The notes: generated by a model from the letters alone, not told the origin. A stretch of DNA of 24,000 bases from Candidatus Heimdallarchaeota archaeon (GCA_029882335.1 JAOUKW010000003.1:6383-30382); one strand, 5' to 3'; positions 11-23,275 are shown, counted from the stretch's first letter. Numbers and translations: made by a program.

Positions 11-835
11 ATGTTATATGTAATTCTACCACTCCTATTCTTTTCCTATTTGTCCTTTCTCCCCATATACATTACTATCATAATTCTAGTATCATGTATA
101 ATAATATGGTATTTATTTGATCAATACCATCCTTATGAAATAAAACAATTAATGAAAGAGATGAAAATATCTTCGATTCATAATAAGTTAATAAAATTTG
201 AGTATTCAGAAGGAAATTTAAATTCAGTAGTATTAACTCTAAATAATGCCAATTCAATCCCCAAATCCATTCAATTACTGAAAACAGTAAAAGAACTGAC
301 TATCAATTCAGAATCTCTGGATACAATCCCAGAACAAGTGGGGTTAATTAACAAGCTAGAATTTTTATGTATAAATGGTGTAAATATAACAAATATTCAC
401 AGTAATATAGGGAAGTTAGAGAATCTAAAAAAGATATTTATAGAAAATACGCAGATAAAAAATCTACCTGAAACCATTTTTCAAAATAATACTCTTGAGG
501 AGATTCATCTTGCGAACAACTTAATTGAAACAATACCTCAAGAACTGAGTGATATGCAAAGCCTGACCTTGTTAGATTTGCATGGTAATAATATAACTAC
601 ACTTCCTGATACAATAGGTGAATTACAAAAAATCACCATGCTTGATTTCAGTAATAATAAACTAGAAGATCTACCAAGATCCTTGACTAAATTAAAAACA
701 CTCAAATTTTTTGAAATTACTCATAACCCGTTAAACCAATTATCTTCTGAACTCAAAATATGGTTGAGGAAAATGGAAAATTCATTGGTTACTGACCTAT
801 CCTTCTTCAAGAATTTTGATATCTCCGACGGTTAA
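11..835 (+). CDS. Membrane-anchored leucine-rich repeat (LRR) protein
   Basis: ATG-initiated 274-aa ORF. The frame stays open to the window edge, so an upstream start cannot be excluded. The N-terminal ~35 aa are strongly hydrophobic (LPLLFFSYLSFLPIYITIIILVSCIIIWYLF). Residues ~85-250 form about seven 22-24-aa repeats fitting LxxLxLxxNxLxxLPxxIgxL, e.g. LTLLDLHGNNITTLPDTIGEL and ITMLDFSNNKLEDLPRSLTKL. Confidence 0.8.
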   Translation: MLYVILPLLFFSYLSFLPIYITIIILVSCIIIWYLFDQYHPYEIKQLMKEMKISSIHNKLIKFEYSEGNLNSVVLTLNNANSIPKSIQLLKTVKELTINSESLDTIPEQVGLINKLEFLCINGVNITNIHSNIGKLENLKKIFIENTQIKNLPETIFQNNTLEEIHLANNLIETIPQELSDMQSLTLLDLHGNNITTLPDTIGELQKITMLDFSNNKLEDLPRSLTKLKTLKFFEITHNPLNQLSSELKIWLRKMENSLVTDLSFFKNFDISDG

Positions 836-3475: not shown

Positions 3476-5371
3476 TTATTTATTTGAATTTTTTTTAACG
3501 ATAGGTAGCAAAACAATGATTGAAAGCAATGTAGCAAGGCTAGTAAATCCATATGTTTCAACTGCACTAGAACTTAATATTTGAGAGGGCGATGATGGTG
3601 TTTCTGGGTCATCTACTTCGACAGAAACAAGATCCCATTGTTGGAGATTTTGACTTAATAGTTGAAAATCTAATCCAACAATTGAGCTATTATATAACCA
3701 ATGATGTTGACGAGATGCAATTGGAATTACTGGTTTCCATTCAGCCAAAAAGGATTGAATTTGCTGCAATAAATTAATTCTAGTTGCAGTATCAATTGCA
3801 ACCTGATAATCAGCGACTAAACCCGTAATTTCTTGGTTTGCAAAGTTATACCAGTTATCACAAGTACCAGTGTCACAGAGACCATTGGTGTCAAATAAGT
3901 ATTGTGGATTATAGTCTAATGGCCATCCATATGCTATAAAGAATATATCATATCCACCATCATCCCATAATGGAACTAAAGATGCATCTTGCCATCCAAA
4001 TGTTCTAGGAATAATTTCATCCCATCCTTGGCTAACTATTTCAGTAACACCAATACCGATCTTTGGTAGGTCTTCCTCAAAAATATTATGCCAATAATTT
4101 CTCATGGCACAATCTATATATCGTAATAAAGTCACATTAAAAAAGAAAGTGTTGTATGTGTCAGAGGTTTGATTATAAATAAGTGTTGAATAATCGAAAC
4201 CAGCGGAATTCATTAATGATCTGGCTATTTCAATATTGAATGGATCAGGTGATATTGTGTTGTCCAATCCTGTTGTAGTGGGAGGTATTGGTGTTGATAA
4301 TGGTATTGCCAAATTATCAAATATTTCTGAAATGATATAACTTCGGTTCAAAACATGTGACATGGCATTTCTAACTGATTTAGCACCCATAATTCTATCC
4401 TCTGTAGTGGCTGTAGTTCCTAATGGAAGTCCTTCTCCAGTTCCATACATGGGGTGAATATTATTAAGTGCCATCTCAATTGTCTCTGACGTATTTGAGG
4501 TTTTAGAAGTAAATTTTGTAGTATCATATGAATTATCAAGTGGTATCAAATATTTATGGTCAATTAAATCAATATTGCCAGATGTAGTTTCAGTTAATAT
4601 TTGACCATTGAGAATTTGCTTAAAGATTATTTTATCAAAATAAACAGAATCAGAAGAAAAGTAGTTGTTATTTTTAATTAGAGTGACAATTTTATTTTGT
4701 AAATCGATTGTGTCTACTTTATATGGTCCACCGCCAGTTATATCTGCACCTGATGGATCATTCCAACTACAGTCATCAGCCATATATACATCATTTGCTT
4801 TACAAATATCCCATTTAGAGCTAAAATAAATTTGATTGAGAATTGGTATAGATAATGCTCGAATATTAAATGCATGTATTTGATTAAATTCAATTCTGAC
4901 TGTTAAATCATCAACTTTAACAACTGAGTTTATAGAGAAATCATCGATTAATAATTTTAAACTTGTTATATTAAAAATTGGGTCTAGTAGTATTTCATAG
5001 GTAAAAATAACATCATCTGCAGTAAAAGGAGTTCCATCTTCAAATAACATTCCTTGTTTTATAGTTACAGTGTAGTTCTTTCCATCCGGAGTTATACTAA
5101 GTGTATCCGCAAACCATTCTGTTAATTCTCCGTTATTGGATGAATCTGGTCTAAATAACGATGCACTTACAGCATTCATTATGCGAAAATCAGCCCGGGT
5201 GTTGTCTCTTATGTCTGTTAAATAGGAAAATTCATAAAAATACGATGGAGATGTATATACAAATTCCCTATCATCCTCTTGCAACGATATTGAAGTATCT
5301 GATATGACAAAATTAGATACAAAGATTAATATTATTACATATAAGCTAAAAGTAATTTTAATAGATTTCAT
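3476..5371 (-). CDS. Extracellular solute-binding protein, family 5 (peptide/nickel/opine type), with C-terminal membrane anchor
   Basis: 631-aa ATG ORF with an N-terminal signal peptide (MKSIKITFSLYVIILIFVSNFVIS). It has the family-5 SBP signature region (WFADTLSITPDGKNYTVTIKQGMLFEDGTPFTADDVIFTY). The C-terminus is a Ser/Pro linker, then YGFTS, a hydrophobic helix and KKNSNK. It is paralogous to 11974..13905 and to the pseudogene at 10613..11848. Confidence 0.85.
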   Translation of the reverse strand: MKSIKITFSLYVIILIFVSNFVISDTSISLQEDDREFVYTSPSYFYEFSYLTDIRDNTRADFRIMNAVSASLFRPDSSNNGELTEWFADTLSITPDGKNYTVTIKQGMLFEDGTPFTADDVIFTYEILLDPIFNITSLKLLIDDFSINSVVKVDDLTVRIEFNQIHAFNIRALSIPILNQIYFSSKWDICKANDVYMADDCSWNDPSGADITGGGPYKVDTIDLQNKIVTLIKNNNYFSSDSVYFDKIIFKQILNGQILTETTSGNIDLIDHKYLIPLDNSYDTTKFTSKTSNTSETIEMALNNIHPMYGTGEGLPLGTTATTEDRIMGAKSVRNAMSHVLNRSYIISEIFDNLAIPLSTPIPPTTTGLDNTISPDPFNIEIARSLMNSAGFDYSTLIYNQTSDTYNTFFFNVTLLRYIDCAMRNYWHNIFEEDLPKIGIGVTEIVSQGWDEIIPRTFGWQDASLVPLWDDGGYDIFFIAYGWPLDYNPQYLFDTNGLCDTGTCDNWYNFANQEITGLVADYQVAIDTATRINLLQQIQSFLAEWKPVIPIASRQHHWLYNSSIVGLDFQLLSQNLQQWDLVSVEVDDPETPSSPSQILSSSAVETYGFTSLATLLSIIVLLPIVKKNSNK

Positions 5372-6114: not shown

Positions 6115-7206
6115 TTAGTTGTATTTCTTCATTCTCTTCAGTTTCTTGTACTTCAGTTGATTGATAATTAGTAATGCTAATGGTATTATAGTAGAAATAG
6201 CTGAGAATTCAAAACCAACATTTGACGAGGTTGTTGTTGTATTTGATGTTTGTTGAGGAGTTATCGGGGTTTCTGATGGTATATCTAAAATAAATGCAGA
6301 GACAGTAATATTGAATATACCATAATGTAAATACGAATATACCTCAATATAATAAAATCCAGAAACATTGTATAAACGAATCCAATCCATTTCTCTTTCT
6401 GTATAGTACGATTCAGCAATTAATTCTCTTTCTTCGTTATATATATTAAAATCAAAATCTAAAGTTTCATTCGTCATTATGGTTACTTGATAATTGTCAA
6501 ACTCTGTTAAATTAATTTGGAAGAACTTGGGATATTTTATTCTAGTCAATTCTTCGTTGACGGTCTGGTTTAATTGTATATCTATTGCAGTTGAAAAATC
6601 AGACCCTGGAGGAGCTGAAATAACAAGTAGCTCATAATTTGGATCATCAATAATCCAAGGTATAATTTTGATATAGACAAAATCAGTTAGATTATCTAAT
6701 ATATAATATTCAAATTCAATTTCAGCATATGCATATCCGATCTCCTCTTGATTTGAATTATAGATAACCATGTCAAAATCACTGTTAGTATTGTAATGTA
6801 AAGTGAATAAATATATAGTCGATGTTTGATTTAAAGTGAGATTATAATATCGACTTCCATCATCTGATGGGCCGGGTAGTACGTCATTTACTGTTTGATT
6901 TAATTCTATTGATATTGCGGTATTAATAGAATCTCCATGAGAGCTATTCGGTGTGATTTTTAGATTATCCATTTTACTCGGCTCAATTTTAAATTGTTGA
7001 AATCGATATTGAAAATCACTATTAGTTGAAATTGCTGTATTTGATACTGGTAGAAATAGGAAAATACAGATGGAAATTAAGACTGTGGTTTTATTGTCCA
7101 CATTTAAGGTGAATATTACATATTTAAAAGGATATTTAATGGATTGTGTAGCAAAATTTCTCAATATTTTTATTTTAAATACAATTCTGTATATGGTATA
7201 ATTCAT
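6115..7206 (-). CDS. Secreted, C-terminally anchored protein with two tandem pre-peptidase C-terminal (PPC)-like beta-sandwich domains
   Basis: 363-aa ORF with two internal repeats fitting the PPC pattern. Repeat 1: TAISIELNQTVNDVL..YYNLTL..DFDMVIYNSNQEEIGYAY..VYIKIIPW..YELLV. Repeat 2: TAIDIQLNQTVNEEL..FFQINL..DFDFNIYNEERELIAESY..YYIEVYSY..FNITV. The tail is a Thr/Ser linker, VGFEFS, a TM helix and KYKKLKRMKKYN. Start is uncertain. ATG 7206 gives a 36-aa pre-signal extension. GTG at 7101 would give a clean signal peptide (MDNKTTVLISICIFLFLPVS) with TTTTAAATA ~28 nt upstream. Confidence 0.7.
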   Translation of the reverse strand: MNYTIYRIVFKIKILRNFATQSIKYPFKYVIFTLNVDNKTTVLISICIFLFLPVSNTAISTNSDFQYRFQQFKIEPSKMDNLKITPNSSHGDSINTAISIELNQTVNDVLPGPSDDGSRYYNLTLNQTSTIYLFTLHYNTNSDFDMVIYNSNQEEIGYAYAEIEFEYYILDNLTDFVYIKIIPWIIDDPNYELLVISAPPGSDFSTAIDIQLNQTVNEELTRIKYPKFFQINLTEFDNYQVTIMTNETLDFDFNIYNEERELIAESYYTEREMDWIRLYNVSGFYYIEVYSYLHYGIFNITVSAFILDIPSETPITPQQTSNTTTTSSNVGFEFSAISTIIPLALLIINQLKYKKLKRMKKYN

Positions 7207-7262: not shown

Positions 7263-8264
7263 ATGCTTTTGTTTTTCCTTTTAGTTAGTCCTAATACTAC
7301 TTTTGGAAAGACTAGGAGAGATAGTATAATTCTTTTTATTGATGAATTATATCGATCTGATGGTGGATATGCTGATAAGACTGTGTCTAGTTCTTCAACT
7401 GATGCTTCTACATTTGTTTTGATGACTGCTGCATTACTTGGTTATGAGATAAATAATACACTTGATCTTCAACATTATTTTCAGAGTTCACAGAATTATG
7501 ATGGTGGTTTTGGAAATAATCCAAATAATATTAGTAATTGGCAAAGTACTATTCATTCTATTTTTGGTTTAAATATATTGGGTATTAATGCTTCACAATT
7601 GAGTAATTGGAGAATTAATAATTTTATAAATGACACTGCTATCAATACACTATTTAATACATCTTTAAATCCAATAACTCCTGTTGATTTAAATAAAGAG
7701 ATTATAGATCTTTGGCATGATTACATTTATACCTATTCTGTTATAGGTTATATTCCAATAATTCCAATTGAATTCTTATTGTCAAATTTACTACAAATGC
7801 AATATCCAAATGGTACATATCCAAATTTACCAATTGCAATTTCTACAATAAACCTTCTTAATCTACTTGGAGAACCGGTGAGAGATGTGGAATTAGCTTC
7901 AGAGTATATCAGATCATTTGCAGATTCAAGTGGTGCGTTTTCTTATTCGAGAGAAGGTGGAGCGTCAATTAAGGCAACAATGGAGTCCGTTAGGGCATTA
8001 CAAGTTATGGGTAGATTAGATGATTTGGAGTATAAGCGAGATATAGTTCAGTTTTTGCTGAATCAACAAGAAGCTAGTCAAGGAATTCATGAAGTAGGTA
8101 AGGAAGTTGATATCTATGCAACATATCAAGCAGTCTATACAATTTTCGTGTTAGGTTATATTACTGAACTAAATGCACCAGATGTATTGGAATCAGATCG
8201 TTTTGTAACTTTTCCATTTATATCTATGATACTAATCCCACTGGTATGGAGGAAAAGAAGATGA
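7263..8264 (+). CDS. Surface-anchored alpha/alpha-toroid protein with prenyltransferase/terpene-cyclase-type repeats
   Basis: 333-aa ATG ORF; an in-frame TAA at 7233 excludes a longer form. Five repeats match the prenyltransferase beta-subunit type: DGGYADK..TAALLGY; NYDGGFGNNPN..IFGLNILG; QYPNGTYPN..LLNLLG; DSSGAFSYS..VRALQVMG; QQEASQGIHE..YTIFVLG. It has a short N-terminal signal and a C-terminal FVTFPFISMILIPLVWRKRR anchor. Confidence 0.7.
   Translation: MLLFFLLVSPNTTFGKTRRDSIILFIDELYRSDGGYADKTVSSSSTDASTFVLMTAALLGYEINNTLDLQHYFQSSQNYDGGFGNNPNNISNWQSTIHSIFGLNILGINASQLSNWRINNFINDTAINTLFNTSLNPITPVDLNKEIIDLWHDYIYTYSVIGYIPIIPIEFLLSNLLQMQYPNGTYPNLPIAISTINLLNLLGEPVRDVELASEYIRSFADSSGAFSYSREGGASIKATMESVRALQVMGRLDDLEYKRDIVQFLLNQQEASQGIHEVGKEVDIYATYQAVYTIFVLGYITELNAPDVLESDRFVTFPFISMILIPLVWRKRR
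8248..8252 (+). promoter_or_regulatory. Shine-Dalgarno motif (GGAGG) for the ABC ATPase gene
   Basis: GGAGG lies 8 nt upstream of ATG 8261. That ATG overlaps the upstream stop (ATGA, 8261..8264), which is classic translational coupling. Confidence 0.6.
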
Positions 8265-10612: not shown

Positions 10613-11848
10613 ATGAGATATTTTTTGTTATTCTCCGTTTTTATGGTGATAACAATATTAATCACTGCAAATGAGAACTTATATAATTCAAATCAATCAG
10701 AACAAATTTTATATCAGACCACAACTCTTACATATGCGTTACCTTATGATTTTGCTGAATTTGGTTATTTTACTGCATACTCTATGCAACACAACAATGG
10801 CTGTCTGCAATAGGTGTGTCTTTATTTAGATATGATGCAAGTAATGACAGATTAATGACTCCTTGGTTTGCAGAAAGCTATGAAATTAGTACAGATGGTA
10901 AGAATTATACTGTTACTATCAAACCTAGAATGAAATTCCAAGATGGGAGTCCATTTACTGTAGATGATGTTGTATTTTCCTACAAAGTTTACTATCATGA
11001 CTTTTTTGATGATGCAGACGGCATCATGAACAACGAATCAGTTCATAAAATTGATGCAAGATCATTGATGATGTCTGTAGGCTTTGATTATAATGATTTA
11101 ATCTACAATTTAGATACCGATACCTATAATTCATACTTCTTCAATGTAACATTGTTAAGTCCTAGTTCTAGTCCTATCAGACATATATGGTCCGTCTATT
11201 TAGATCAATCATTACCAAAGATAGGTATTGGTGTAACAGAACATGTTAATACCGGATGGGGTGAAATTGTTCCCCGAACTTTTGGATGGTCTTCAAATAC
11301 ATTAGTGCCATTATGGGATGACGGTGGTTATGATATTTTCTTTATTGGATATAGATGGTCATTTGACTATGATCCACAGTACTTATATGATACCTATGGG
11401 CTTTGTGACACCGGTTCATGTGATAACTGGTATAACTTTGTAAACACTATAATTACTGATCTCGTAGATTTATATGTACGAGAGTTAGATAATAATGCAA
11501 GAATTACATTAGCTCACCAAATTCAAGATTTCTTGAAAGTATGGAGACCTGTTATTCCTAGCATTTACCCACAACCCACGGGGCTATAATAAAAATTTAA
11601 CAGGTATTGATGGAATTTTACTCTCCAGCTCAAACCAACAATGGGATCATTTAGGATTTATTCCCTATACTCCTTCAATAAGTGACTCTCCTACTTCTAG
11701 TAATGATATACTAAATAATATTACACCTACTCCAAAAAATCATAATTCTGATAGTTCAAATGAAGGATTTTTGGATGGATTTTCATTTCTTATTGTAATG
11801 TCAACTTTGTTCATATGGACTGTGAGATACTACAAAAGAAGGAAATAA
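10613..11848 (+). pseudogene. Decayed family-5 solute-binding protein gene (paralogue of 11974..13905)
   Basis: Alignment by eye to the intact neighbour shows three lesions. (1) A 1-nt deletion near 10782 (tcatatgcaac becomes tctatgcaac) causes a frameshift and a TAG at 10811. (2) An in-frame loss of 681 nt (227 codons) has its junction at 11053/11054, equals intact 12436..13116, and is flanked by 'atg' microhomology. (3) Two 1-nt losses near 11573..11580 lead to TAA TAA at 11587. The reading frame then resumes in another frame (NLTGIDGILLSSSNQQWD...) through a linker, DGFSF, a TM helix and YYKRRK, with the stop at 11846..11848. ORF-track entries 10586..10813 and 10816..11589 are its fragments. 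Confidence 0.85.
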
Positions 11849-11973
11849 ATTATCTGGAAATCATAATTTAACAATTTTTTATAATTGTATATGAATGAAA
11901 TAAATTGAAAGGGTTGTCCAAAACTAATCTTTTATTAACAATTATTTATATAATTGTTATCTATGTTCTCTGT

Positions 11974-13905
11974 ATGAGGTACAATCTCAATCTCCGTAAA
12001 TTATTATTTGGTATAATGATTATGACTTTATTAATCATGTCCAATAATAATGTCATAAGTATAGATCAATCCAGTATTGGATTAACTCAAAATCCTACAA
12101 CAACGCTTACACATGCGTTACCGTATGATTTTACTGAATTTGGTTATTTTACAGCATACTCATATGCAACACAACAATGGCTGTCTGCAGTACGTGCGTC
12201 TTTATTTAGATATGATGCAAGTAATGACAGATTAATGACTCCTTGGTTTGCAGAAGGCTATGAAATTAGTTCTGATGGTAAGAATTATACAGTTACTATC
12301 AAAGCAGGAATGAAATTCCAAGATGGAAGTCCATTTACTGCAGATGATGTTGTCTTTGCGTATGGCGTTTATTACCATGACATTTTTGGTGGTGCAGACG
12401 GCATCATGAACAACGAATCAGTTCATAAAATTGATGATTTAACCGTTAAGTTTGATATGATGCAAGCATATGCATTTGGTGTTAGTTACTTAAGTAAACC
12501 GATACTTAATGAAGCATATTTTGGACCTAAATGGGCTGCATGTGTTGCAAATGGTGCAACCGTAGAGGCTGATTGTTTATGGGATGATCCAAGTGGTGTT
12601 GATGCACATGGAGGAGGACCATATATGGTTCAATCAATTGATATCACAACTGATGTTGTGACCCTAGTTAAAAATCCCCACTACTTTGATGCTTCTAATG
12701 TTTATTTTGATGAACTTGTTTTTAAAAAGAATTCTAACCCAATTGACGCAATAAATGCTCTTGCAGCTGGTGATATTGACATCATAGATTCTCAATTTGT
12801 ACCTCCATTAGAGGCATTTAATGAATTTGATAATGTTGCATCTTTGAGAGTAACAGATCCTGCTACCCAAGAAATTTCTTTAAATCATCTACATCCGATG
12901 TATGGTACCGGTGAAGATTTACCACTTGGTTCAACCATAACATCTGCAGTAGAAGGAGCAAAAGCAGTTAGAGAGGCTATGTCCAGCGTTCTTAACAGAG
13001 AATCTCTTATAGAAGAAATTTTTGAAGGAAGGGCATTACCCGCAGCTACAGTTGTGCCGGCTACAGCTACTGGTTGGAATCCAAACTTAGCATTTGATCC
13101 ATATGATGTTGCACATGCAAGATCACTGATGGAATCTGTGGGATTCAATTACGGCAATTTAAACTATAATTCCATCAATGATGAATATACATCTTTCTTC
13201 TTCAATGTAACATTGTTGAGTGCTAATACTAGTCCTAGTAGAAATTTATGGCCTGTCTTTTTTGAACAATCCTTACCAAAGATAGGTATTGGTGTAACCG
13301 ATCATGTTAGTACCGGATGGGCAGAAATAAATCTCAGAACATTTGGGTGGTCTTCAAATACATTAGTACCATTATATGATGATGGTGGTTATGATGTATT
13401 TTTTGTAGGATATGGATTTCCATTAGACTATGATCCACAATACATATTTGATACTAATGGTCTATGTGACTCTAGTGGACCTGGAGCATGTAAAAACTGG
13501 TATAACTTTGTAAACCAAGAAATTACTGATCTAGTAGATTTATATGTAAGAGAATTAGATGGTAATACAAGAATTACCTTAATTGGTCAAATTCAAGATT
13601 TCTTGAAAGCATGGAGACCTGTTATTCCTAGCATTTACCCACAATCCCACTGGGGACATAATGTTAATTTAACCGGTATAGATGGAATTTTACTCTCTAC
13701 ATCAAACCAACAATGGGATCAAGTGAAGGTTCAAGACTTAATTCCTCCTCCTTCTAACAATTCCTCAACACCAGTAAATCAGACATCTGATAATTCGGTT
13801 GATAATGGAGATTTAGATGGATTTTCATCAATTCTGGTATTATCAAGCATGTTTGTAATGACCGTGTTATACCGAAAAAAATGGACAAATAAGTTGAAGA
13901 TTTAA
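11974..13905 (+). CDS. Extracellular solute-binding protein, family 5, with C-terminal membrane anchor
   Basis: The ORF-track start at 11905 is TTG. ATG 11974 gives a signal peptide (MRYNLNLRKLLFGIMIMTLLIMS) that parallels the pseudogene's MRYFLLFSVF. The family-5 signature is WFAEGYEISSDGKNYTVTIKAGMKFQDGSPFTADDVVFAY. The tail is a Pro/Ser/Asn linker, LDGFSS, a TM helix and RKKWTNKLKI. Confidence 0.85.
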   Translation: MRYNLNLRKLLFGIMIMTLLIMSNNNVISIDQSSIGLTQNPTTTLTHALPYDFTEFGYFTAYSYATQQWLSAVRASLFRYDASNDRLMTPWFAEGYEISSDGKNYTVTIKAGMKFQDGSPFTADDVVFAYGVYYHDIFGGADGIMNNESVHKIDDLTVKFDMMQAYAFGVSYLSKPILNEAYFGPKWAACVANGATVEADCLWDDPSGVDAHGGGPYMVQSIDITTDVVTLVKNPHYFDASNVYFDELVFKKNSNPIDAINALAAGDIDIIDSQFVPPLEAFNEFDNVASLRVTDPATQEISLNHLHPMYGTGEDLPLGSTITSAVEGAKAVREAMSSVLNRESLIEEIFEGRALPAATVVPATATGWNPNLAFDPYDVAHARSLMESVGFNYGNLNYNSINDEYTSFFFNVTLLSANTSPSRNLWPVFFEQSLPKIGIGVTDHVSTGWAEINLRTFGWSSNTLVPLYDDGGYDVFFVGYGFPLDYDPQYIFDTNGLCDSSGPGACKNWYNFVNQEITDLVDLYVRELDGNTRITLIGQIQDFLKAWRPVIPSIYPQSHWGHNVNLTGIDGILLSTSNQQWDQVKVQDLIPPPSNNSSTPVNQTSDNSVDNGDLDGFSSILVLSSMFVMTVLYRKKWTNKLKI

Positions 13906-14512: not shown

Positions 14513-15760
14513 TTAATCTGTTGTTTTTGTTGGTTTTGATTTTTTAGTTGTAGATCCGTTGGTAATGTCTGCTAATGATATATCTGCTTCTTTTAATGCA
14601 TTAATTCCAGAAATTAGATCCGAATAGAAACTATTTGAGGATAAAAATAACTTAGAGTTCTTTTCAATTCCTTTTGAGATTTGTTCTGCAACCTTTACCT
14701 GTGTATCTGCATTGATTTCTGCAATCTTTACACCAATACCTTCTTTGTTGAAAGATTTAATTGCTTCTGCAAGAGCTTTTGTACCCTCTGCTTCTGCAAG
14801 TAATTTTAGCTTAATAGCTTCTGCTTCCGCTTGAGCTCTAATTCGAATTGCTTCAGCCTCTGATCTAGCTTTAATTAGTTGTGCTTCAGATTCTCCTTTG
14901 GCAATTTCCATTTGTCTTTCAGATTCAGCTAGCGTATCAATTTTTAATTTTTCTGATTCAATTTCTGCAGTACGTCTGATTTCAGCATTCTTTATATCCA
15001 TTTTTCTTAGTGTTAACTCTTTATTTTCAACTGCAATGAATTTTTCCTGTTCTAATCTTGCTGCTTCTGATTTTTGAAGTGCTTGTTGTTTTTGTACTTC
15101 TGCTTCAGAAATCTTTTGTGCTTCAATAATTTCAGCTTGTGTACTTTGTTCAGCTTCAGCAATTCTTGCTAATTTGGTTAATTCTGCCGATTTCACCCTT
15201 TCCATATCCGAAATTACTGTGCTACCCGGAACATCAACAATATCTCTGATGTCAAATATTAATACTTTAACACCTAATCTAGATAATGATTCTGCTGTAG
15301 ATTTATAGATTGCTGTTTCAATCTCATCTCTTTCTCTCATGATAGTTGTTAATTCTAATCTCATTGCCTCAGATCTTGCCGCTGCTTGTATGGTATCGTC
15401 AACTATTGGTTTGATTTCATTTGCAGTAGCTTTTCCTAGGGTTTGGACGGCAGTTTTTGCATCAGAAACTTGGACTTTACAAGATATTTCAACGGCAAAT
15501 GGTAAGTTAGAAGAATCTAGTAGTTTGATTCTTTGAACAGCAATTTCTATTACGCTTGTTGAAATTATATTTTTCTTATGTATAAGTGGAAAATATCTAT
15601 ATGATTGCCCACCATTAAACATTTTTATTTTACCTCTACCGGATATAACGTGTACTTCATCTGGTTTTACAACGTTATATGTTGTATATAGTATATATCC
15701 AATTGCAACAATAATTCCTGTAAACAGAAATCCAATTGTTGTTACATCTAATTGTGCCAT
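14513..15760 (-). CDS. Flotillin-like SPFH/band-7 domain membrane scaffold protein
   Basis: 415-aa ATG ORF. It has an N-terminal TM hairpin (TTIGFLFTGIIVAIGYILYTTY) and an SPFH core (VHVISGRGKIKMF...FAVEISCKVQV...). A long Glu/Ala-rich coiled coil follows, with flotillin-type EA repeats (RSEAEAIRIRAQAEAEAIKLKLLAEAEGTKALAEA). Confidence 0.9.
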   Translation of the reverse strand: MAQLDVTTIGFLFTGIIVAIGYILYTTYNVVKPDEVHVISGRGKIKMFNGGQSYRYFPLIHKKNIISTSVIEIAVQRIKLLDSSNLPFAVEISCKVQVSDAKTAVQTLGKATANEIKPIVDDTIQAAARSEAMRLELTTIMRERDEIETAIYKSTAESLSRLGVKVLIFDIRDIVDVPGSTVISDMERVKSAELTKLARIAEAEQSTQAEIIEAQKISEAEVQKQQALQKSEAARLEQEKFIAVENKELTLRKMDIKNAEIRRTAEIESEKLKIDTLAESERQMEIAKGESEAQLIKARSEAEAIRIRAQAEAEAIKLKLLAEAEGTKALAEAIKSFNKEGIGVKIAEINADTQVKVAEQISKGIEKNSKLFLSSNSFYSDLISGINALKEADISLADITNGSTTKKSKPTKTTD

Positions 15761-15770: not shown

Positions 15771-16472
15771 TTATGATATATTTACAATATTATTTGCGTC
15801 AAATTGTAGTATTGCTTTACAATTTGGACAAACATTCCTAATTTCTAGCCAAGCTTTCAAATGTTCGATATGAGCATTGTAATTACATTGTGGACAAGAA
15901 CTTGAATTTTCAAGGATGCCAATATCTGCAAAACAGATCATACAAAACTTATCTTTTGATTTTTTTCTAATAAATTTAATAATTTTTGAGTAAGATTTCT
16001 TCTCTGAAGGTTTGTTGATTTTAAAATTTGAATTGAATTCATAGACTTGTGCATATACTCCATTGAAGTGCGAAATTACCACCTTTGTCCACTTTGGAAT
16101 TGTGTTTATTTCGTTATCAATGCCTTCTGCAACAAAATATTCTCTTCCATTATCTGTTTCAAGTATTATTTGTCCCTTCTTACCTGGATTTATTGGAATA
16201 TCTACAATCGCAATTTTTCCTATGGATTGATCATAAATATCCTTGGGATCGTTGATTTGTAGAAAAATTATACCTAGCAATCCAGATACAATTAATCCAA
16301 TAATAAATGCGTTGATACTTTCTGTGTTATTATATCCTAGAATACCCCAAACAAATAGAAAGATAGGCCAATCTATCGGTAAATTAGAAAGTGGTAAGGT
16401 GAAGTTGTATTTTTCTTTTGCTATTGCTACTATAATCGCAACAACAATTAAAAACAAATAAAAGATGCTCAT
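15771..16472 (-). CDS. NfeD-family membrane protein (3 TM + OB-fold) fused to a C-terminal RING/PHD-type zinc finger
   Basis: 233-aa ATG ORF with three N-terminal hydrophobic helices. An NfeD C-terminal-domain-like beta segment follows (GKIAIVDIPINPGKKGQIILETDNGREYFVAEG...WTKVVISHFNGVYAQVYE), then a Lys-rich linker. The finger is C177-x2-C-x12-C-x2-C-x4-H-x2-H-x10-C-x2-C218 (nt 15819..15944) and includes HLKAWLEIRNVCPNCK. The gene sits directly upstream of an SPFH gene, which is the conserved NfeD position. Confidence 0.8.
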   Translation of the reverse strand: MSIFYLFLIVVAIIVAIAKEKYNFTLPLSNLPIDWPIFLFVWGILGYNNTESINAFIIGLIVSGLLGIIFLQINDPKDIYDQSIGKIAIVDIPINPGKKGQIILETDNGREYFVAEGIDNEINTIPKWTKVVISHFNGVYAQVYEFNSNFKINKPSEKKSYSKIIKFIRKKSKDKFCMICFADIGILENSSSCPQCNYNAHIEHLKAWLEIRNVCPNCKAILQFDANNIVNIS

Positions 16473-19330: not shown

Positions 19331-21238
19331 TTATTTTGACATTTTGGTTTTCTTTCTTAGAAACCAAGTGATTACTGGTATCAAAAGAAGAGTAGTTGCA
19401 TTGAACTCAACAATTCTCGGTTCTGATATACCTGATGTGGAGGAGTTAGTTATATCCCTTGATGTCAAACTTCCAAACTCAGAAACATAATTATATGGAT
19501 TATTTATTACATTATGTGCATGTTGAATTATAGTATAACTTTCTAAATATAATTTTTGAGCATGAAGTGACATGGCATTCAAGTATAATTCATCTAAATA
19601 TGGTAAAAGATCCGGAAATGTTGATCCCCAATGAGTATATGCCTCTGTATATGCATTATATAGTGTAAAAATTATTTTATCTAAATTTCTTCTCCAGAAG
19701 GCTTGCGAAATTAAAACAGAAAAATTCGCTGTACCTGGATAATAACCCATTACATCGGAAATAAAATCGGATACAAATGAATTTCCAAATGTATGTGGCA
19801 GTCCGATGGAATGTCCAATTTCATGTATTAGTACTTTGCTTAATCCTGCTTTATGGGTGGTTCCATCTGGCATGAATGCCCGATCTAATTCCCATAACAT
19901 AGTTACAATTCCATTTCCTCCAAGCCCGGTATAAAGGCCTCCTGTCCAAGGTATCCAACTGTCTCCTGCGTAACTCGCATTATCAAGAAGGAGTATCAAT
20001 CCTTTAATTGGTAGAGTTGCATCTGTTCTTTCAAAATAATTACCGCGTAAAATACTATTACTGAATATCTCACCCCAGAGTTGATCTCCATTATAAAATC
20101 TCCAATTTTCAAAAGGTGGATCGATCCCTTGGTATGCACTATAATCTATTTCTGCATTTTCTATCAAATCTTTAAGAAACGTATCATTATTTATATCATA
20201 ATAATTAACTACAAATTCAATATTTGTTGAATTTGCTATGTAACCTAATTTATCAATTGATAATTGTTCATTAATTATCCATCGTAATTCTTCTTCACTT
20301 TTTTGTGTGCTATTATATACAACAATGGTTTGTGAATTGACATTTTCTCTTAGATTAATCCCTTCTCCAAATAAACCCATGCCGTATATATTTTCCAGCC
20401 AATCAGTAATCCATTTAGATGTTGTATCAGTAACAATTGGTCTCGCATTTGATGGTGTTTCATTGTTAATGAGCTCTGTTAAGGTATTGTCATAAGATGG
20501 GTGATAAATTGTATTATCATTCCAAATACTTCTCCAATTTAACACCCATTGAAATGATGTTGGATCTAAAATTGCAACATCCGTTTGTTCACTGAATGCA
20601 GCATAAGGGAATTTTACATCATAGTTCAATGGGTAGTCCCATTCTAATCTCCAGTAAAATCTTGAAGACATGGAATCTGGATCTATTTCTGTTGCATTTA
20701 ACCAGTGTTTATTGGTACCAATATCCAACCTAGATAAATTGAATACAAACATATGATATAAATTATTATCATTTAAATTCGTTGATGGTTTGTTTGCAGA
20801 TAAATATTGTTCTAATAATCTAGCATCTATTGCTTTTCCATTTTGCTGTTCAAAAATATCCTTTCTCACAAAGTTTACTTTTTGTTCATTAATTGCTGTT
20901 TCATTAAGTTTAGAAGTCCAGTCATCGGTTGTAATGGTATCAATATATGCATTTAATTGGTCCGTATAAGACTGATCTGGTACTTGTAAATCCAAGATTA
21001 CATCATAATTCAAATCTCCATAGTAATTATAAAAGTATGTAAATTGTAATTGTGATCTAATTGAGTTTAAATCTAAAAGACTAGTATCAAAATTTATGAA
21101 ATTAATTGAAATATTCATCTCTATATCAACTTCTGGTAAAACTGGTGTTACAAGGACTGAATTCGTATTAATTGGTGCGAATGCAAAAATAATAAGAATA
21201 AGGAGAGTTTTACTTATATTTATATTCATCTGAATCAT
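19331..21238 (-). CDS. Secreted, C-terminally anchored metzincin-type zinc metalloprotease (HExxHxxGxxH + Met-turn; M43/M10-like motif)
   Basis: The ORF-track start at 21241 is TTG and the adjacent ATG is at 21238. The signal peptide is KTLLILIIFAFAPINTNS. The zinc motif LIHEIGHSIGLPHTFGN (nt 19792..19824) is followed by a SDVMGYY Met-turn candidate. About 450 aa precede the motif. The C-terminus is a TM helix followed by RKKTKMSK. The protein contains no cysteine. Confidence 0.85.
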   Translation of the reverse strand: MIQMNINISKTLLILIIFAFAPINTNSVLVTPVLPEVDIEMNISINFINFDTSLLDLNSIRSQLQFTYFYNYYGDLNYDVILDLQVPDQSYTDQLNAYIDTITTDDWTSKLNETAINEQKVNFVRKDIFEQQNGKAIDARLLEQYLSANKPSTNLNDNNLYHMFVFNLSRLDIGTNKHWLNATEIDPDSMSSRFYWRLEWDYPLNYDVKFPYAAFSEQTDVAILDPTSFQWVLNWRSIWNDNTIYHPSYDNTLTELINNETPSNARPIVTDTTSKWITDWLENIYGMGLFGEGINLRENVNSQTIVVYNSTQKSEEELRWIINEQLSIDKLGYIANSTNIEFVVNYYDINNDTFLKDLIENAEIDYSAYQGIDPPFENWRFYNGDQLWGEIFSNSILRGNYFERTDATLPIKGLILLLDNASYAGDSWIPWTGGLYTGLGGNGIVTMLWELDRAFMPDGTTHKAGLSKVLIHEIGHSIGLPHTFGNSFVSDFISDVMGYYPGTANFSVLISQAFWRRNLDKIIFTLYNAYTEAYTHWGSTFPDLLPYLDELYLNAMSLHAQKLYLESYTIIQHAHNVINNPYNYVSEFGSLTSRDITNSSTSGISEPRIVEFNATTLLLIPVITWFLRKKTKMSK

Positions 21239-21382
21239 CAATAACCTTTAATTATAAATATCAATTCATTTAACTTCAATAAATTTATTTTAATATCGTT
21301 TATTTTTTTTTTATTTTGCTGAGTAATTTAAAATCTAAATTGTAAAATCAGGATAAAAATTTATAGAATACTCATGAATTTA

Positions 21383-23275
21383 TTAAAATTTTCTTTTTTT
21401 AATTAATTTAATTGTTATTATAGGAATTAATACTAATAAACTGAAACCGAAATTGTGAGTTAGTTCCTCTTCTTTTGAATTTGGAATTATAAAATCATTA
21501 GAGAATTCGGATGAGTACTCAGAAACAGAAGTATATTGCTCCGGAAAGTTTAATACATGTAGTAGATGTTCTATCATTGGTATTAATTCTAAATATTTTT
21601 TCTGTGCGTGTATTTCCATTGCAAGTTTGTAATTTTCAAAAACGTAACTAACTATATTGGGGTAATAATTGGTATAATCCAAATATGTTTCTTGATATCT
21701 TGTTAATAGTTCTTGTATCTTATTATCCACATTTCTTCTCCAAAAACTTTGAGAAATTAAAGTTGAGAAATTTGCTGTACCTGGATAATAGCCCATTACA
21801 TCGGAAATAAAATCTGATACAAATGAATTAGTAAATGTATGTGGCAACCCGATGGAATGTCCTATTTCATGGATAAGTACTTTACTTAATCCTGCTTTAT
21901 GGGTTACGCCATTTGGCATGAATGCACGATCCAATTCCCATAACATGGTAACAATGCCACCACCACCTAAACCTGTAAATAACCCTCCCGTCCATGGAGT
22001 TAGTGAGGGAGAATCAGATGCATAACTTGCATTATCCAAGATCAGTATTATTCCCTTAACTGGAATGTCTGCTGTACTGTCAATGAAATAATTATTATTC
22101 AATTCAGAATTTACAACGACTGCATTAAATAAATCAATCCCATCATAATAGGTCCAATTTTCAAATGGTGGTGTTCCATAAACCGATTGATAATCTATTT
22201 CTGCATTTCTCAGGATGTTTTGAAGAACATGATCTGATTTTACATCATAATAATTGACTATGATATCAACATCAGTTGAGTTTGCTATAAATCCCAATTC
22301 ATCAGAAACTAATTGTTCATTAATAATCCATTCAATTTCACTTCTGCTCTTTTGACTGCTGTTATATCCAACAATAAACTGAGCATTTGTAGATCCTCCT
22401 AGTTTTGGTTCGTCACCCATCAATGACATTCCATAAATGCGATTTAACCAATCTCCAACCCATTTAGAAGTAGTATCTGTTACCGTATTTCTGGCTTGTT
22501 CTATTGTTTGAGAAGTTATTAGTTCTGTCAGAGTTTTATCGTAGGATTGGTGATATACCGTATCGGTATTCCAGTATCTTCTCCAATTCAATACCCATTG
22601 AAATGAAGTTGGGTCTATGATTGCTATATCTGATTGTTCACTAAATGCAGCATAAGGGAATTTAACATCATAATTCATTGGGTAATCCCATTCTAATCTC
22701 CAGTAAAATCTCGAGGACATGGAATCTGGATCAATCTCAGTTACATTTAACCAATGTTTATTTGCTCCAACATCCAATCTAGAAAGATTAAATACAAAGA
22801 TGTGATATAAATTATTGTCATTGAGAGTTGTTGTAGGTTTATTATTTGAAAGATATTGTTCTAATAGTCTAGCATCAACTGCTTTTCCATATTGTTGTTC
22901 GAAAATATCCTTTCTAGTAAACTCTGCTCTTTGTTCTAATATTGCTGTTTCATTTAGTCTAGAAGTCCAGTCCTCAGAGGTAATGGTATCAATATAATTA
23001 TTTAATGATTCAGTATAATCCTGATCTGGTGTGTTTAATTCAAAAATAATATTATATTCTGTTGATCCATAATTCCTGTATAATTGTGTGTTTTCAAAAT
23101 TTGATTGGAGCGCAGTCAAATCTAACAGATTTAGGTCAAAATTAATGAAATTAATTGCTATATTCATTTCTGCCAATAGTGGTAATGTTTCAGTTGGTTC
23201 CTGTGAATTGATTTTTGGTGTTGATGTGGTGATCAAAAAAATGATTACAAGCAATCGCAAATTTTTTTTATCCAT
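21383..23275 (-). CDS. Secreted, C-terminally anchored metzincin-type zinc metalloprotease, tandem paralogue of 19331..21238
   Basis: 630-aa ATG ORF with a signal peptide (LRLLVIIFLITTSTPKINS). It has the identical LIHEIGHSIGLPHTF motif (nt 21839..21871) and SDVMGYY. It is colinear with the downstream paralogue over the full length. The tail is NFGFS, a TM helix and KKRKF. The protein contains no cysteine. Confidence 0.85.
   Translation of the reverse strand: MDKKNLRLLVIIFLITTSTPKINSQEPTETLPLLAEMNIAINFINFDLNLLDLTALQSNFENTQLYRNYGSTEYNIIFELNTPDQDYTESLNNYIDTITSEDWTSRLNETAILEQRAEFTRKDIFEQQYGKAVDARLLEQYLSNNKPTTTLNDNNLYHIFVFNLSRLDVGANKHWLNVTEIDPDSMSSRFYWRLEWDYPMNYDVKFPYAAFSEQSDIAIIDPTSFQWVLNWRRYWNTDTVYHQSYDKTLTELITSQTIEQARNTVTDTTSKWVGDWLNRIYGMSLMGDEPKLGGSTNAQFIVGYNSSQKSRSEIEWIINEQLVSDELGFIANSTDVDIIVNYYDVKSDHVLQNILRNAEIDYQSVYGTPPFENWTYYDGIDLFNAVVVNSELNNNYFIDSTADIPVKGIILILDNASYASDSPSLTPWTGGLFTGLGGGGIVTMLWELDRAFMPNGVTHKAGLSKVLIHEIGHSIGLPHTFTNSFVSDFISDVMGYYPGTANFSTLISQSFWRRNVDNKIQELLTRYQETYLDYTNYYPNIVSYVFENYKLAMEIHAQKKYLELIPMIEHLLHVLNFPEQYTSVSEYSSEFSNDFIIPNSKEEELTHNFGFSLLVLIPIITIKLIKKRKF

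Follow-up and report, generated by a model that had tools for sequence, protein, structure and literature searches.

Two adjacent genes, here called A and B, lie on the minus strand of a 24,000-nucleotide stretch of DNA (the window) from Candidatus Heimdallarchaeota archaeon (GCA_029882335.1, JAOUKW010000003.1:6383-30382), and the proteins that they encode were analyzed computationally. Taken as a whole, the data make it fairly probable that A and B are old tandem paralogues whose products would be surface-tethered, active metzincins of an undescribed family that shares ancestry with PIGS, a subunit of the glycosylphosphatidylinositol (GPI) transamidase. Positions below are those of the whole window, and residue numbers are those of B unless stated otherwise. 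As an initial annotation made from the sequence alone had described, two colinear open reading frames (ORFs) encoding paralogues were present; they lie on the minus strand, share 61-62% amino acid identity and are separated by an AT-rich spacer of 141 bp. ORF A is 636 residues long when read from a TTG, but an ATG at 21238 (635 residues; gene call on the source contig) or at 21229 (632 residues; P0002, the protein-database call) is the more likely start.

Zinc site, predicted fold and family of A and B

The zinc-binding motif HEIGHSIGLPH and a VMGYY Met-turn were found in each protein (Table 1). In B, M494 of the D-V-M-G-Y-Y segment is located 15 residues past the third motif histidine, and Y496, two residues after the methionine, occupies what we take to be the position of the 'tyrosine switch' of astacin, serralysin and pappalysin. 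Among 107 full-length members of the family, HExxHxxGxxH was intact in 96, M494 was kept in 103 and Y496 in 97. B was then modeled with AlphaFold2 (AF2) from a 32-sequence alignment, giving a mean predicted local distance difference test score (pLDDT) of 85.8 and a predicted template modeling score of 0.85; only the signal-peptide region, with a low-pLDDT helix at residues 3-17, and the stalk (residues 584-616) were poorly defined. Between residues 296 and 537 the model runs through a strand, a long helix, a strand, an insert, three to four strands, the active-site helix (464-474), the Met-turn and a long helix, so that the catalytic lobe (293-540) reads as β1, αA, β2, insert, β3-β5, active-site helix, Met-turn and αC. 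This order fits the five-stranded sheet, active-site helix and Met-turn of the metzincin fold. Foldseek matched the model over about 245 columns to true metzincins (4on1, 3p24, 2e3x, 2y6c, 2xs4 and 2rjp), which comprised Bacteroides fragilis metalloproteinase II and fragilysin zymogens, snake-venom adamalysins, MMP-7, karilysin and ADAMTS4. The best E-value among these was 4.9e-4, the probability reached 1.0 (4on1), and template modeling (TM) scores normalized to the target were 0.51-0.54 for MMP-7 and karilysin. The motif, the Met-turn and the predicted fold together place A and B in the metzincin clan MA(M), in agreement with the initial annotation.

No characterized peptidase family accommodated the two proteins. 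Matches of A and B to Pfam and NCBIfam profiles were all below threshold and confined to about 25 residues around the zinc motif; the families concerned were Reprolysin_5, Peptidase_M10, M66, M43, M54 and archaemetzincin. Sequence searches of the PDB gave a best E-value of 0.06, and the profile search gave 0.38 or worse. A word-indexed protein search returned 35 relatives, all called 'hypothetical protein', and an exhaustive profile search returned 278 clusters at 50% identity (E ≤ 1e-3), 98 of them with E ≤ 1e-30. Most of the profile matches listed were 600-750 residues long and many aligned end to end, the rest being fragments or partial, multi-stretch matches. Because it recurs full-length in these 278 clusters, the architecture of A and B is far beyond chance. 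In species-representative genomes, full-length relatives occurred in Heimdall- and Hodarchaeota, in many Bathyarchaeia, in a few Dehalococcoidia and in one metagenome-assembled genome (MAG) of Krumholzibacteriaceae.

Some members have lost every zinc ligand and are nevertheless full length, including a clade annotated Thorarchaeota. In P0066, P0086, P0092, P0096 and P0123 (Thorarchaeota where named; about 720-745 residues), the three histidines and the glutamate were all replaced, as in ILREVLSILGLNAS, and the rest of the scaffold was kept together with a proper C-terminal transmembrane segment of about 20 residues. By their sequences, these proteins appear to be natural pseudo-metzincins within the Asgard archaea, so that inactivation would have occurred inside that group.

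The history of the pair was examined by comparing A with B. BLASTP aligned them over their full length (61% identity, E = 0), and at the codon level they shared 67% of nucleotides and 62% of amino acids, with an overall dN of 0.32 and a dS of about 1.2; given this dS, the duplication is old. Across codon windows along the alignment, omega ranged from 0.06 to 0.75 with dS near saturation, and no window showed omega >1. The earlier suggestion that the copies may differ in substrate or partner specificity was therefore not supported. Nucleotide identity did peak over the catalytic block, as first noticed (residues 449-508, 87%; omega 0.08-0.10), but this was not the sole peak, since residues 150-240 of the N-terminal lobe were equally high (84-86%; omega 0.06-0.07). 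A and B were least alike in the first ~60 and last ~120 residues. The C-terminal ~90 residues, described before as diverged, indeed shared only 42-46% of amino acids, yet they contribute to a confidently predicted helical bundle.

Composition told less. Neither A nor B contains a cysteine, exactly as annotated, whereas family members elsewhere carry 0-13, so that the absence is not a family trait; it is a feature of this lineage without special meaning. Sequons of the form N-x-S/T numbered 13 in A (8.8±2.6 expected from composition) and 8 in B (8.0 expected), an enrichment over composition that was not significant in either protein and that upholds the view that they are merely as frequent as expected. 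Four of them are kept family-wide: N108-E-T, N163-L-S, N415-A-S and N502-F-S.

Because the zinc ligands, general base, Met-turn and tyrosine are kept in about 90% of members and purifying selection acts on the pair, catalysis can be argued for. We consider it very likely that A and B are active metzincins of an undescribed family, and they would act as endopeptidases at the surface of the cell.

Table 1. Coordinates of A, B and their predicted features within the window
Feature	Position	Strand	Basis
ORF B, metzincin-family surface protein, 630 residues (P0001)	21383..23275	minus	ORF list, AF2 model, Foldseek
B signal peptide, residues 1-24, MDKKNLRLLVIIFLITTSTPKINS	23204..23275	minus	basic n-region and uncharged run; putative cleavage site
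B N-terminal α/β lobe, residues 28-292, without family assignment	22400..23194	minus	AF2, Foldseek, hhalign
B block 150-240, most conserved outside the active site	22556..22828	minus	nucleotide identity, omega, alignment
B predicted metzincin catalytic lobe, residues 293-540	21656..22399	minus	DSSP order in model; Foldseek
B zinc-binding motif H469-E-I-G-H473-S-I-G476-L-P-H479	21839..21871	minus	sequence, alignment
B Met-turn M494-G-Y496	21788..21796	minus	sequence; conservation
B C-terminal three-helix region, residues 505-576	21548..21763	minus	AF2; paralogue divergence; hhalign
B C-terminal hydrophobic segment and basic tail, NFGFSLLVLIPIITIKLIKKRKF	21386..21454	minus	14-residue uncharged run, then KKRK
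ORF A, paralogue of B, 636 residues from TTG	19331..21241	minus	ORF list, BLASTP
A zinc-binding motif HEIGHSIGLPH	19793..19825	minus	sequence
A Met-turn M-G-Y	19742..19750	minus	sequence
A C-terminal hydrophobic segment and basic tail, NATTLLLIPVITWFLRKKTKMSK	19334..19402	minus	uncharged run, sequence

Resemblance to PIGS and origin of the two lobes

The top PDB matches of the full B model were chains of PIGS from the human GPI transamidase (chain S of 7WLD and 7W72). Foldseek aligned the model to 7wld_S (E 2.9e-9) and 7w72_S (E 7.3e-9) with probability 1.0 over about 650 columns, five orders of magnitude ahead of the best true metzincin (5e-4). When the N-terminal lobe was searched alone, PIGS again came first (8imy_S, E 9.6e-3, probability 0.51), followed by generic α/β folds with E ≥ 0.07. 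Residues 222-398 of PIGS have been described as folding like the metzincin AmzA, without the three-histidine site and the methionine (Xu et al. 2022, PMC9098846). At the sequence level, the sole colinear signal came from the C-terminal helices, residues 501-580 of the archaeal profile aligning with PIGS 401-517 in hhalign (P 2.5e-4, probability 43%). Its score of 21.5, compared with 8.0 for the reversed control, was reached by 1 of 150 column permutations. The best hmmsearch match of the archaeal profile, to a fungal PIGS, fell in the same helical region.

The unlikely but serious alternative is that A and B form a new metzincin family whose likeness to PIGS is at the level of fold only, a metzincin-like α/β core followed by helices, with no ancestry beyond the clan. 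Several results weigh against a specific relationship with PIGS and on the side of this alternative. Whole-chain TM scores to PIGS were only 0.34-0.38, with a root-mean-square deviation of 17 Å, as only part of the structure superposes at a time, and the match of the N lobe alone is marginal at a probability of 0.51. No match to PF10510, the Pfam model of PIG-S/Gpi17, was obtained among 32 members at E ≤ 0.01, hmmsearch between the family and PIG-S gave nothing significant in either direction, and full-length hhalign against PIG-S profiles gave probabilities of 0.3-6.7%, the first with a vertebrate profile and the last with 107 archaeal against 70 vertebrate and fungal sequences. The hhalign global mode gave a meaningless result for the same comparison, and the thorarchaeal pseudo-enzyme clade reached an E-value of 0.11 against PIG-S. 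The C-terminal-helix signal has an empirical p of about 0.01 and is the best of nine region pairs. Furthermore, the family is not Asgard-specific, being abundant in Bathyarchaeia and found in some Dehalococcoidia MAGs, which weakens a vertical Asgard-to-eukaryote story.

Two short strings had been considered as shared motifs and were discarded. 'WELDR', common to the family and the vertebrate PIG-S profile (E 0.19, 0.3%), was rejected as a coincidence, because the archaeal proteins have it in a β-strand that precedes the active-site helix, whereas in PIGS it belongs to a helix downstream of the metzincin-like region. The pairing of archaeal IDPDS..YWRLE with PIGS NPDP..YWDIE was dropped, since hhalign did not support it and an equally good match was obtained with the other lobe; that such 'motif' matches can be had with either lobe means that they arise easily, a further point for a likeness of fold alone.

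What tells against the fold-level explanation is the lead of PIGS itself, about five orders of magnitude and ~650 columns against ~245 for real metzincins. PIGS also ranks first for the N lobe alone, which has no metzincin active-site helix; the weak but colinear profile signal stems from the C-terminal helices, which are not part of the metzincin core; and the termini have the same topology. The low global TM score would be expected if about half of a three-lobed protein superposes at once; it also shows that the match is no rigid-body one. Nor is the weak archaeal-eukaryotic sequence signal strong evidence against homology, because human and yeast PIGS themselves barely align, in only three short stretches. 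On balance, we lean toward a specific common ancestry of the A/B ectodomain with PIGS/Gpi17. It is an evenly poised question whether the prokaryotic family, whose zinc site is intact in heimdall- and hodarchaeal members and lost in thorarchaeal ones, is the ancestral stock of PIGS/Gpi17; PIGS would then have descended, as a dead enzyme, from a two-lobed metzincin of the archaeal surface.

The N-terminal lobe was considered in its own right. The initial annotation had left about 450 residues as a novel ancillary or pro-domain; the size of this part has to be corrected, as it consists of a lobe of about 265 residues and, after it, the first half of the catalytic domain, and because the catalytic lobe starts near residue 293 only the former remains without assignment. 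Modeled alone with AF2, the lobe reached a pLDDT of 82.9. Its block 150-240 reads NLSRLD..HW.N.TE.DPDS..R..WRLEWD..N.DVKFPYAAF..IDPT.FQW..W and contains many invariant Trp, Glu and Asp residues; being as constrained as the active site, it argues against a throw-away propeptide. Aligned by hhalign with the catalytic lobe of the same proteins, the N lobe gave a P of 8.8e-4 over 185 colinear columns, with a score of 28.8 against 12.9 for the reversed control that was reached by 2 of 150 column permutations. The column-permutation nulls contained one or two odd outliers (scores of about 130), which were counted against the observation. In divergent members, an N-lobe 'GWGG…FxDPSA' element was paired with the catalytic-lobe strand 'TGLGGGG'. 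We have moderate confidence that, as these alignments suggest, the N lobe could be an ancient degenerate duplicate of the catalytic lobe that either never had a zinc site or lost it.

In four further family members (P0137, P0154, P0161 and P0171), N-terminal positions of the profile (about 11-175) matched near the C terminus; a portion of the N lobe may thus be arranged differently in some proteins, for instance duplicated or permuted.

Surface attachment, proposed mechanism and gene neighborhood

Both proteins begin with a signal-peptide-like N terminus, in which a basic n-region is followed by a 13-residue uncharged run. At the C terminus, an uncharged run of 14 residues leads into KKRKF or RKKTKMSK. 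The extracytoplasmic location and the anchor-like C-terminal segment that had been proposed for them are supported by these features. As 14 residues are short for a membrane helix, the C-terminal run may be either a membrane anchor or a cleaved sorting signal.

Similar tails were seen elsewhere in the window. Six secreted proteins within the 24 kb, encoded at 3476-5371(-), 6115-7206(-), 7263-8264(+) and 11905-13905(+) and by A and B, share a Ser/Thr-rich stretch, an aromatic/Gly-Phe motif (YGFTS, VGFEFS, FVTFPF, DGFSS, NFGFS), a hydrophobic run of 14-20 residues and a Lys/Arg cluster. These tails resemble PGF-CTERM-type archaeosortase signals more than ordinary transmembrane anchors; none of the CTERM models in NCBIfam matched A or B. 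In other members of the family, a dockerin domain takes the place of the C-terminal anchor (Bathyarchaeota P0033 and P0043) or fibronectin-III repeats stand ahead of the anchor (P0024), and such proteins may use alternative modes of surface attachment.

We propose that each protein would be built of a signal peptide, an N lobe of about 265 residues without a zinc site, the catalytic lobe, a three-helix bundle, a low-complexity stalk, and a hydrophobic segment with a basic tail. Zinc would be held by H469, H473 and H479, E470 would act as the general base, and M494 and Y496 would lie under the metal. Positioned at the cell's outer face, the enzyme would cleave surface or extracellular proteins through the chemistry usual for metzincins, with the motif glutamate activating a zinc-bound water. 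The Trp- and acid-rich N-lobe block 150-240 could serve as a substrate-binding exosite or as a built-in latency element. PIGS, for its part, would have kept the overall build and the topology of the termini and lost the zinc site.

A different possibility is that A and B are non-proteolytic scaffolds or receptors, as PIGS is, and dock a partner enzyme for the processing of the C-terminal sorting signals found on archaeal surface proteins. In the transamidase, PIGS holds the catalytic subunit, PIGK, as a scaffold; five other secreted proteins of the window have tails made up of an aromatic/Gly-Phe motif, a hydrophobic run of 15-20 residues and a basic end; thorarchaeal members have lost the zinc site and kept their full length; and a 2026 study assigns Asgard ancestry, in aggregate, to GPI synthesis and 'the transamidase complex' (2026 Nature paper). 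Against these stand the retention of ligands, base, Met-turn and tyrosine in about 90% of members and the strong purifying selection on A and B. In addition, no legumain-like, M28-like or other candidate partner was found beside the gene in four genomes, and no sign of GPI-like anchoring was seen in this organism. A scaffold function is therefore very improbable, and we retain proteolysis as the probable function of A and B.

As for the biological role of this proteolysis, A and B sit in the window among oligopeptide-binding proteins and S12-like hydrolases: two SBP_bac_5 oligopeptide-binding proteins with a truncated third copy, two beta-lactamase-fold (S12-like) hydrolases and an ABC transporter. 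Because of this setting, a nutritional role in protein scavenging was considered, and we give it an even chance. The gene neighborhood was not conserved in three other genomes, which counts against this role, since the case for scavenging is drawn from this window only.

The window has a G+C content of about 30% and comes from a 90-kb metagenomic contig, the upstream part of which carries Yip1, E1/ubiquitin/E2 and eRF1 genes and thus fits an Asgard genome. The closest named homologues of A and B are from Heimdallarchaeota and Kariarchaeaceae. The E1, ubiquitin and E2 genes lie about 10 kb past the high-coordinate end of the window. A leucine-rich-repeat protein with an N-terminal membrane segment, encoded at 11-835(+), would fit an Asgard origin. 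Directly upstream of an SPFH/Band-7 (flotillin-like) gene at 14513-15760(-), a membrane protein at 15771-16472(-) ends in a RING-like C-x2-C…C-x2-C…H…C-x2-C finger (zf-RING_2, 21.7 bits; cut-off 27.3).

Three other ORFs of the window were recorded. The ORF at 10816-11589(+), 257 residues from a GTG, is the truncated, internally deleted copy of the SBP_bac_5 gene at 11905-13905; its N-terminal ~90 and C-terminal ~160 residues are near-identical to that neighbor and the middle is gone; the ORF probably represents a pseudogene or what a recombination event has left. The secreted protein of 363 residues at 6115-7206(-), one of those with the shared tail, has no Pfam match and contains an internal duplication (…AISIELNQTVNDVLPG… and …AIDIQLNQTVNEELT…). 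The product of 7263-8264(+) has α-α toroid repeats of the prenyltransferase/squalene-cyclase type, no cysteine, an apparent signal peptide and a C-terminal anchor, and is a putative extracytoplasmic protein of the terpenoid-cyclase fold.

Significance and comparison with known systems

GPI anchoring requires PIGS, and mutations in this subunit occur in human neurodevelopmental disease. If the proposed relationship is true, it would provide an evolutionary origin for PIGS, the least understood subunit of the GPI transamidase. PIGS would then descend from a peptide-binding protease and might still bind substrate peptides, and the active archaeal enzymes would give a handle on its ligands, for example the C-terminal signal region of substrates, as well as a tractable soluble or archaeal model. 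Apart from PIGS, the data point to a metzincin family not described before, found fairly widely among archaea of sediments (Bathyarchaeia and Asgard lineages) and with an unusual duplicated-lobe architecture; the family could contribute to extracellular protein degradation.

A 2026 Nature paper claims an Asgard origin of 'the transamidase complex' in aggregate only; its supplement text names no transamidase subunit, and no subunit-level statement on PIGS was found. Part of the evolutionary claim may thus already be implicit there. In the literature searched, no paper joining Asgard with 'GPI transamidase', or PIGS/Gpi17 with archaea, was found. What is new here is the undescribed two-lobed metzincin family and, plausible but unproven, an active archaeal counterpart of PIGS.

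Among known metzincins, the initial annotation placed A and B closest to M43 and M10, which holds for the wording of the motif (13 residues) and not for family membership: PF05572 (M43) scored 13.0-13.8 bits against a cut-off of 23, over residues 455-487 only, and PF00413 (M10) scored 19.9-20.6 bits against 24 in the motif region only. M12B membership is likewise not supported by PF13688 (20.7-22.1 bits against 27) or PF13582 (17.9-19.4 against 22.4), nor M54 membership by NF033823 (14 bits against 145). That A and B are divergent members of a characterized family, pappalysin/ulilysin M43 or matrixin M10, is suggested by the resemblance of HEIGHSIGLPHTF to HEIGHSLGLYHVF of PAPP-A and by the presence of M10, reprolysin-like families and M43 among the best sub-threshold Pfam matches, yet it is extremely unlikely, since the M43 and M10 matches all stay under the curated cut-offs and within ~25 residues around the motif, PDB profile searches gave no E-value better than 0.38, the proteins have neither cysteine switch nor disulfides because they lack cysteine, and fragilysin/MP-II and adamalysins lie ahead of the MMPs as structural neighbors, with PAPP-A2 at rank 42.

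The best true-metzincin matches were the fragilysin (BFT) and MP-II zymogens (3P24, 4ON1) and the M12B adamalysin/ADAM domains, with E-values of 4.9e-4 to 3e-2 over about 245-260 columns. Like A and B, the fragilysin-type zymogens have a large N-terminal α/β domain ahead of the catalytic domain. In A and B, however, conservation of the N lobe equals that of the active site, an unusual trait if the lobe were a disposable prodomain, and both have the C-terminal helical bundle and anchor that fragilysin lacks; with Reprolysin_5 at 22 bits against a 27-bit cut-off, they fall outside the fragilysin/M12B sequence families. The pappalysin/ulilysin family M43 has a nearly identical extended zinc motif (HEIGHS-GL-H-F), and pappalysin presumably shares with A and B the tyrosine two residues past the Met-turn methionine. 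Only this motif aligns, though, and M43 differs from A and B in that the latter have no cysteine or disulfides and match PAPP-A2 poorly in structure. The archaemetzincin AmzA (M54; NF033823, PF07998) is an archaeal metzincin as well, but it is a small cytosolic protein (chains of 160-163 residues) that carries a Cys4 zinc finger; A and B, by contrast, are secreted, about 630 residues long and free of cysteine.

PIGS, finally, has a metzincin-like lobe followed by a helical region, as predicted for A and B, and in both the chain runs from an N-terminal hydrophobic segment through an extracytoplasmic domain of about 500-600 residues to a second hydrophobic segment, near the C terminus, and a short basic tail. 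It acts with PIGK, GPAA1, PIGT and PIGU in a five-subunit complex of the endoplasmic reticulum. The grooves of its 'shamrock-like' lumenal domain hold PIGK, the catalytic subunit, and its function is otherwise called 'less clear' (Xu et al. 2022, PMC9098846); no partner genes were seen beside A/B-family genes in the neighborhoods examined. The N-terminal segment of PIGS is a retained transmembrane helix, whereas that of A and B looks like a cleavable signal peptide. Most importantly, PIGS lacks the zinc ligands, the general base and the Met-turn, all of which A and B keep.

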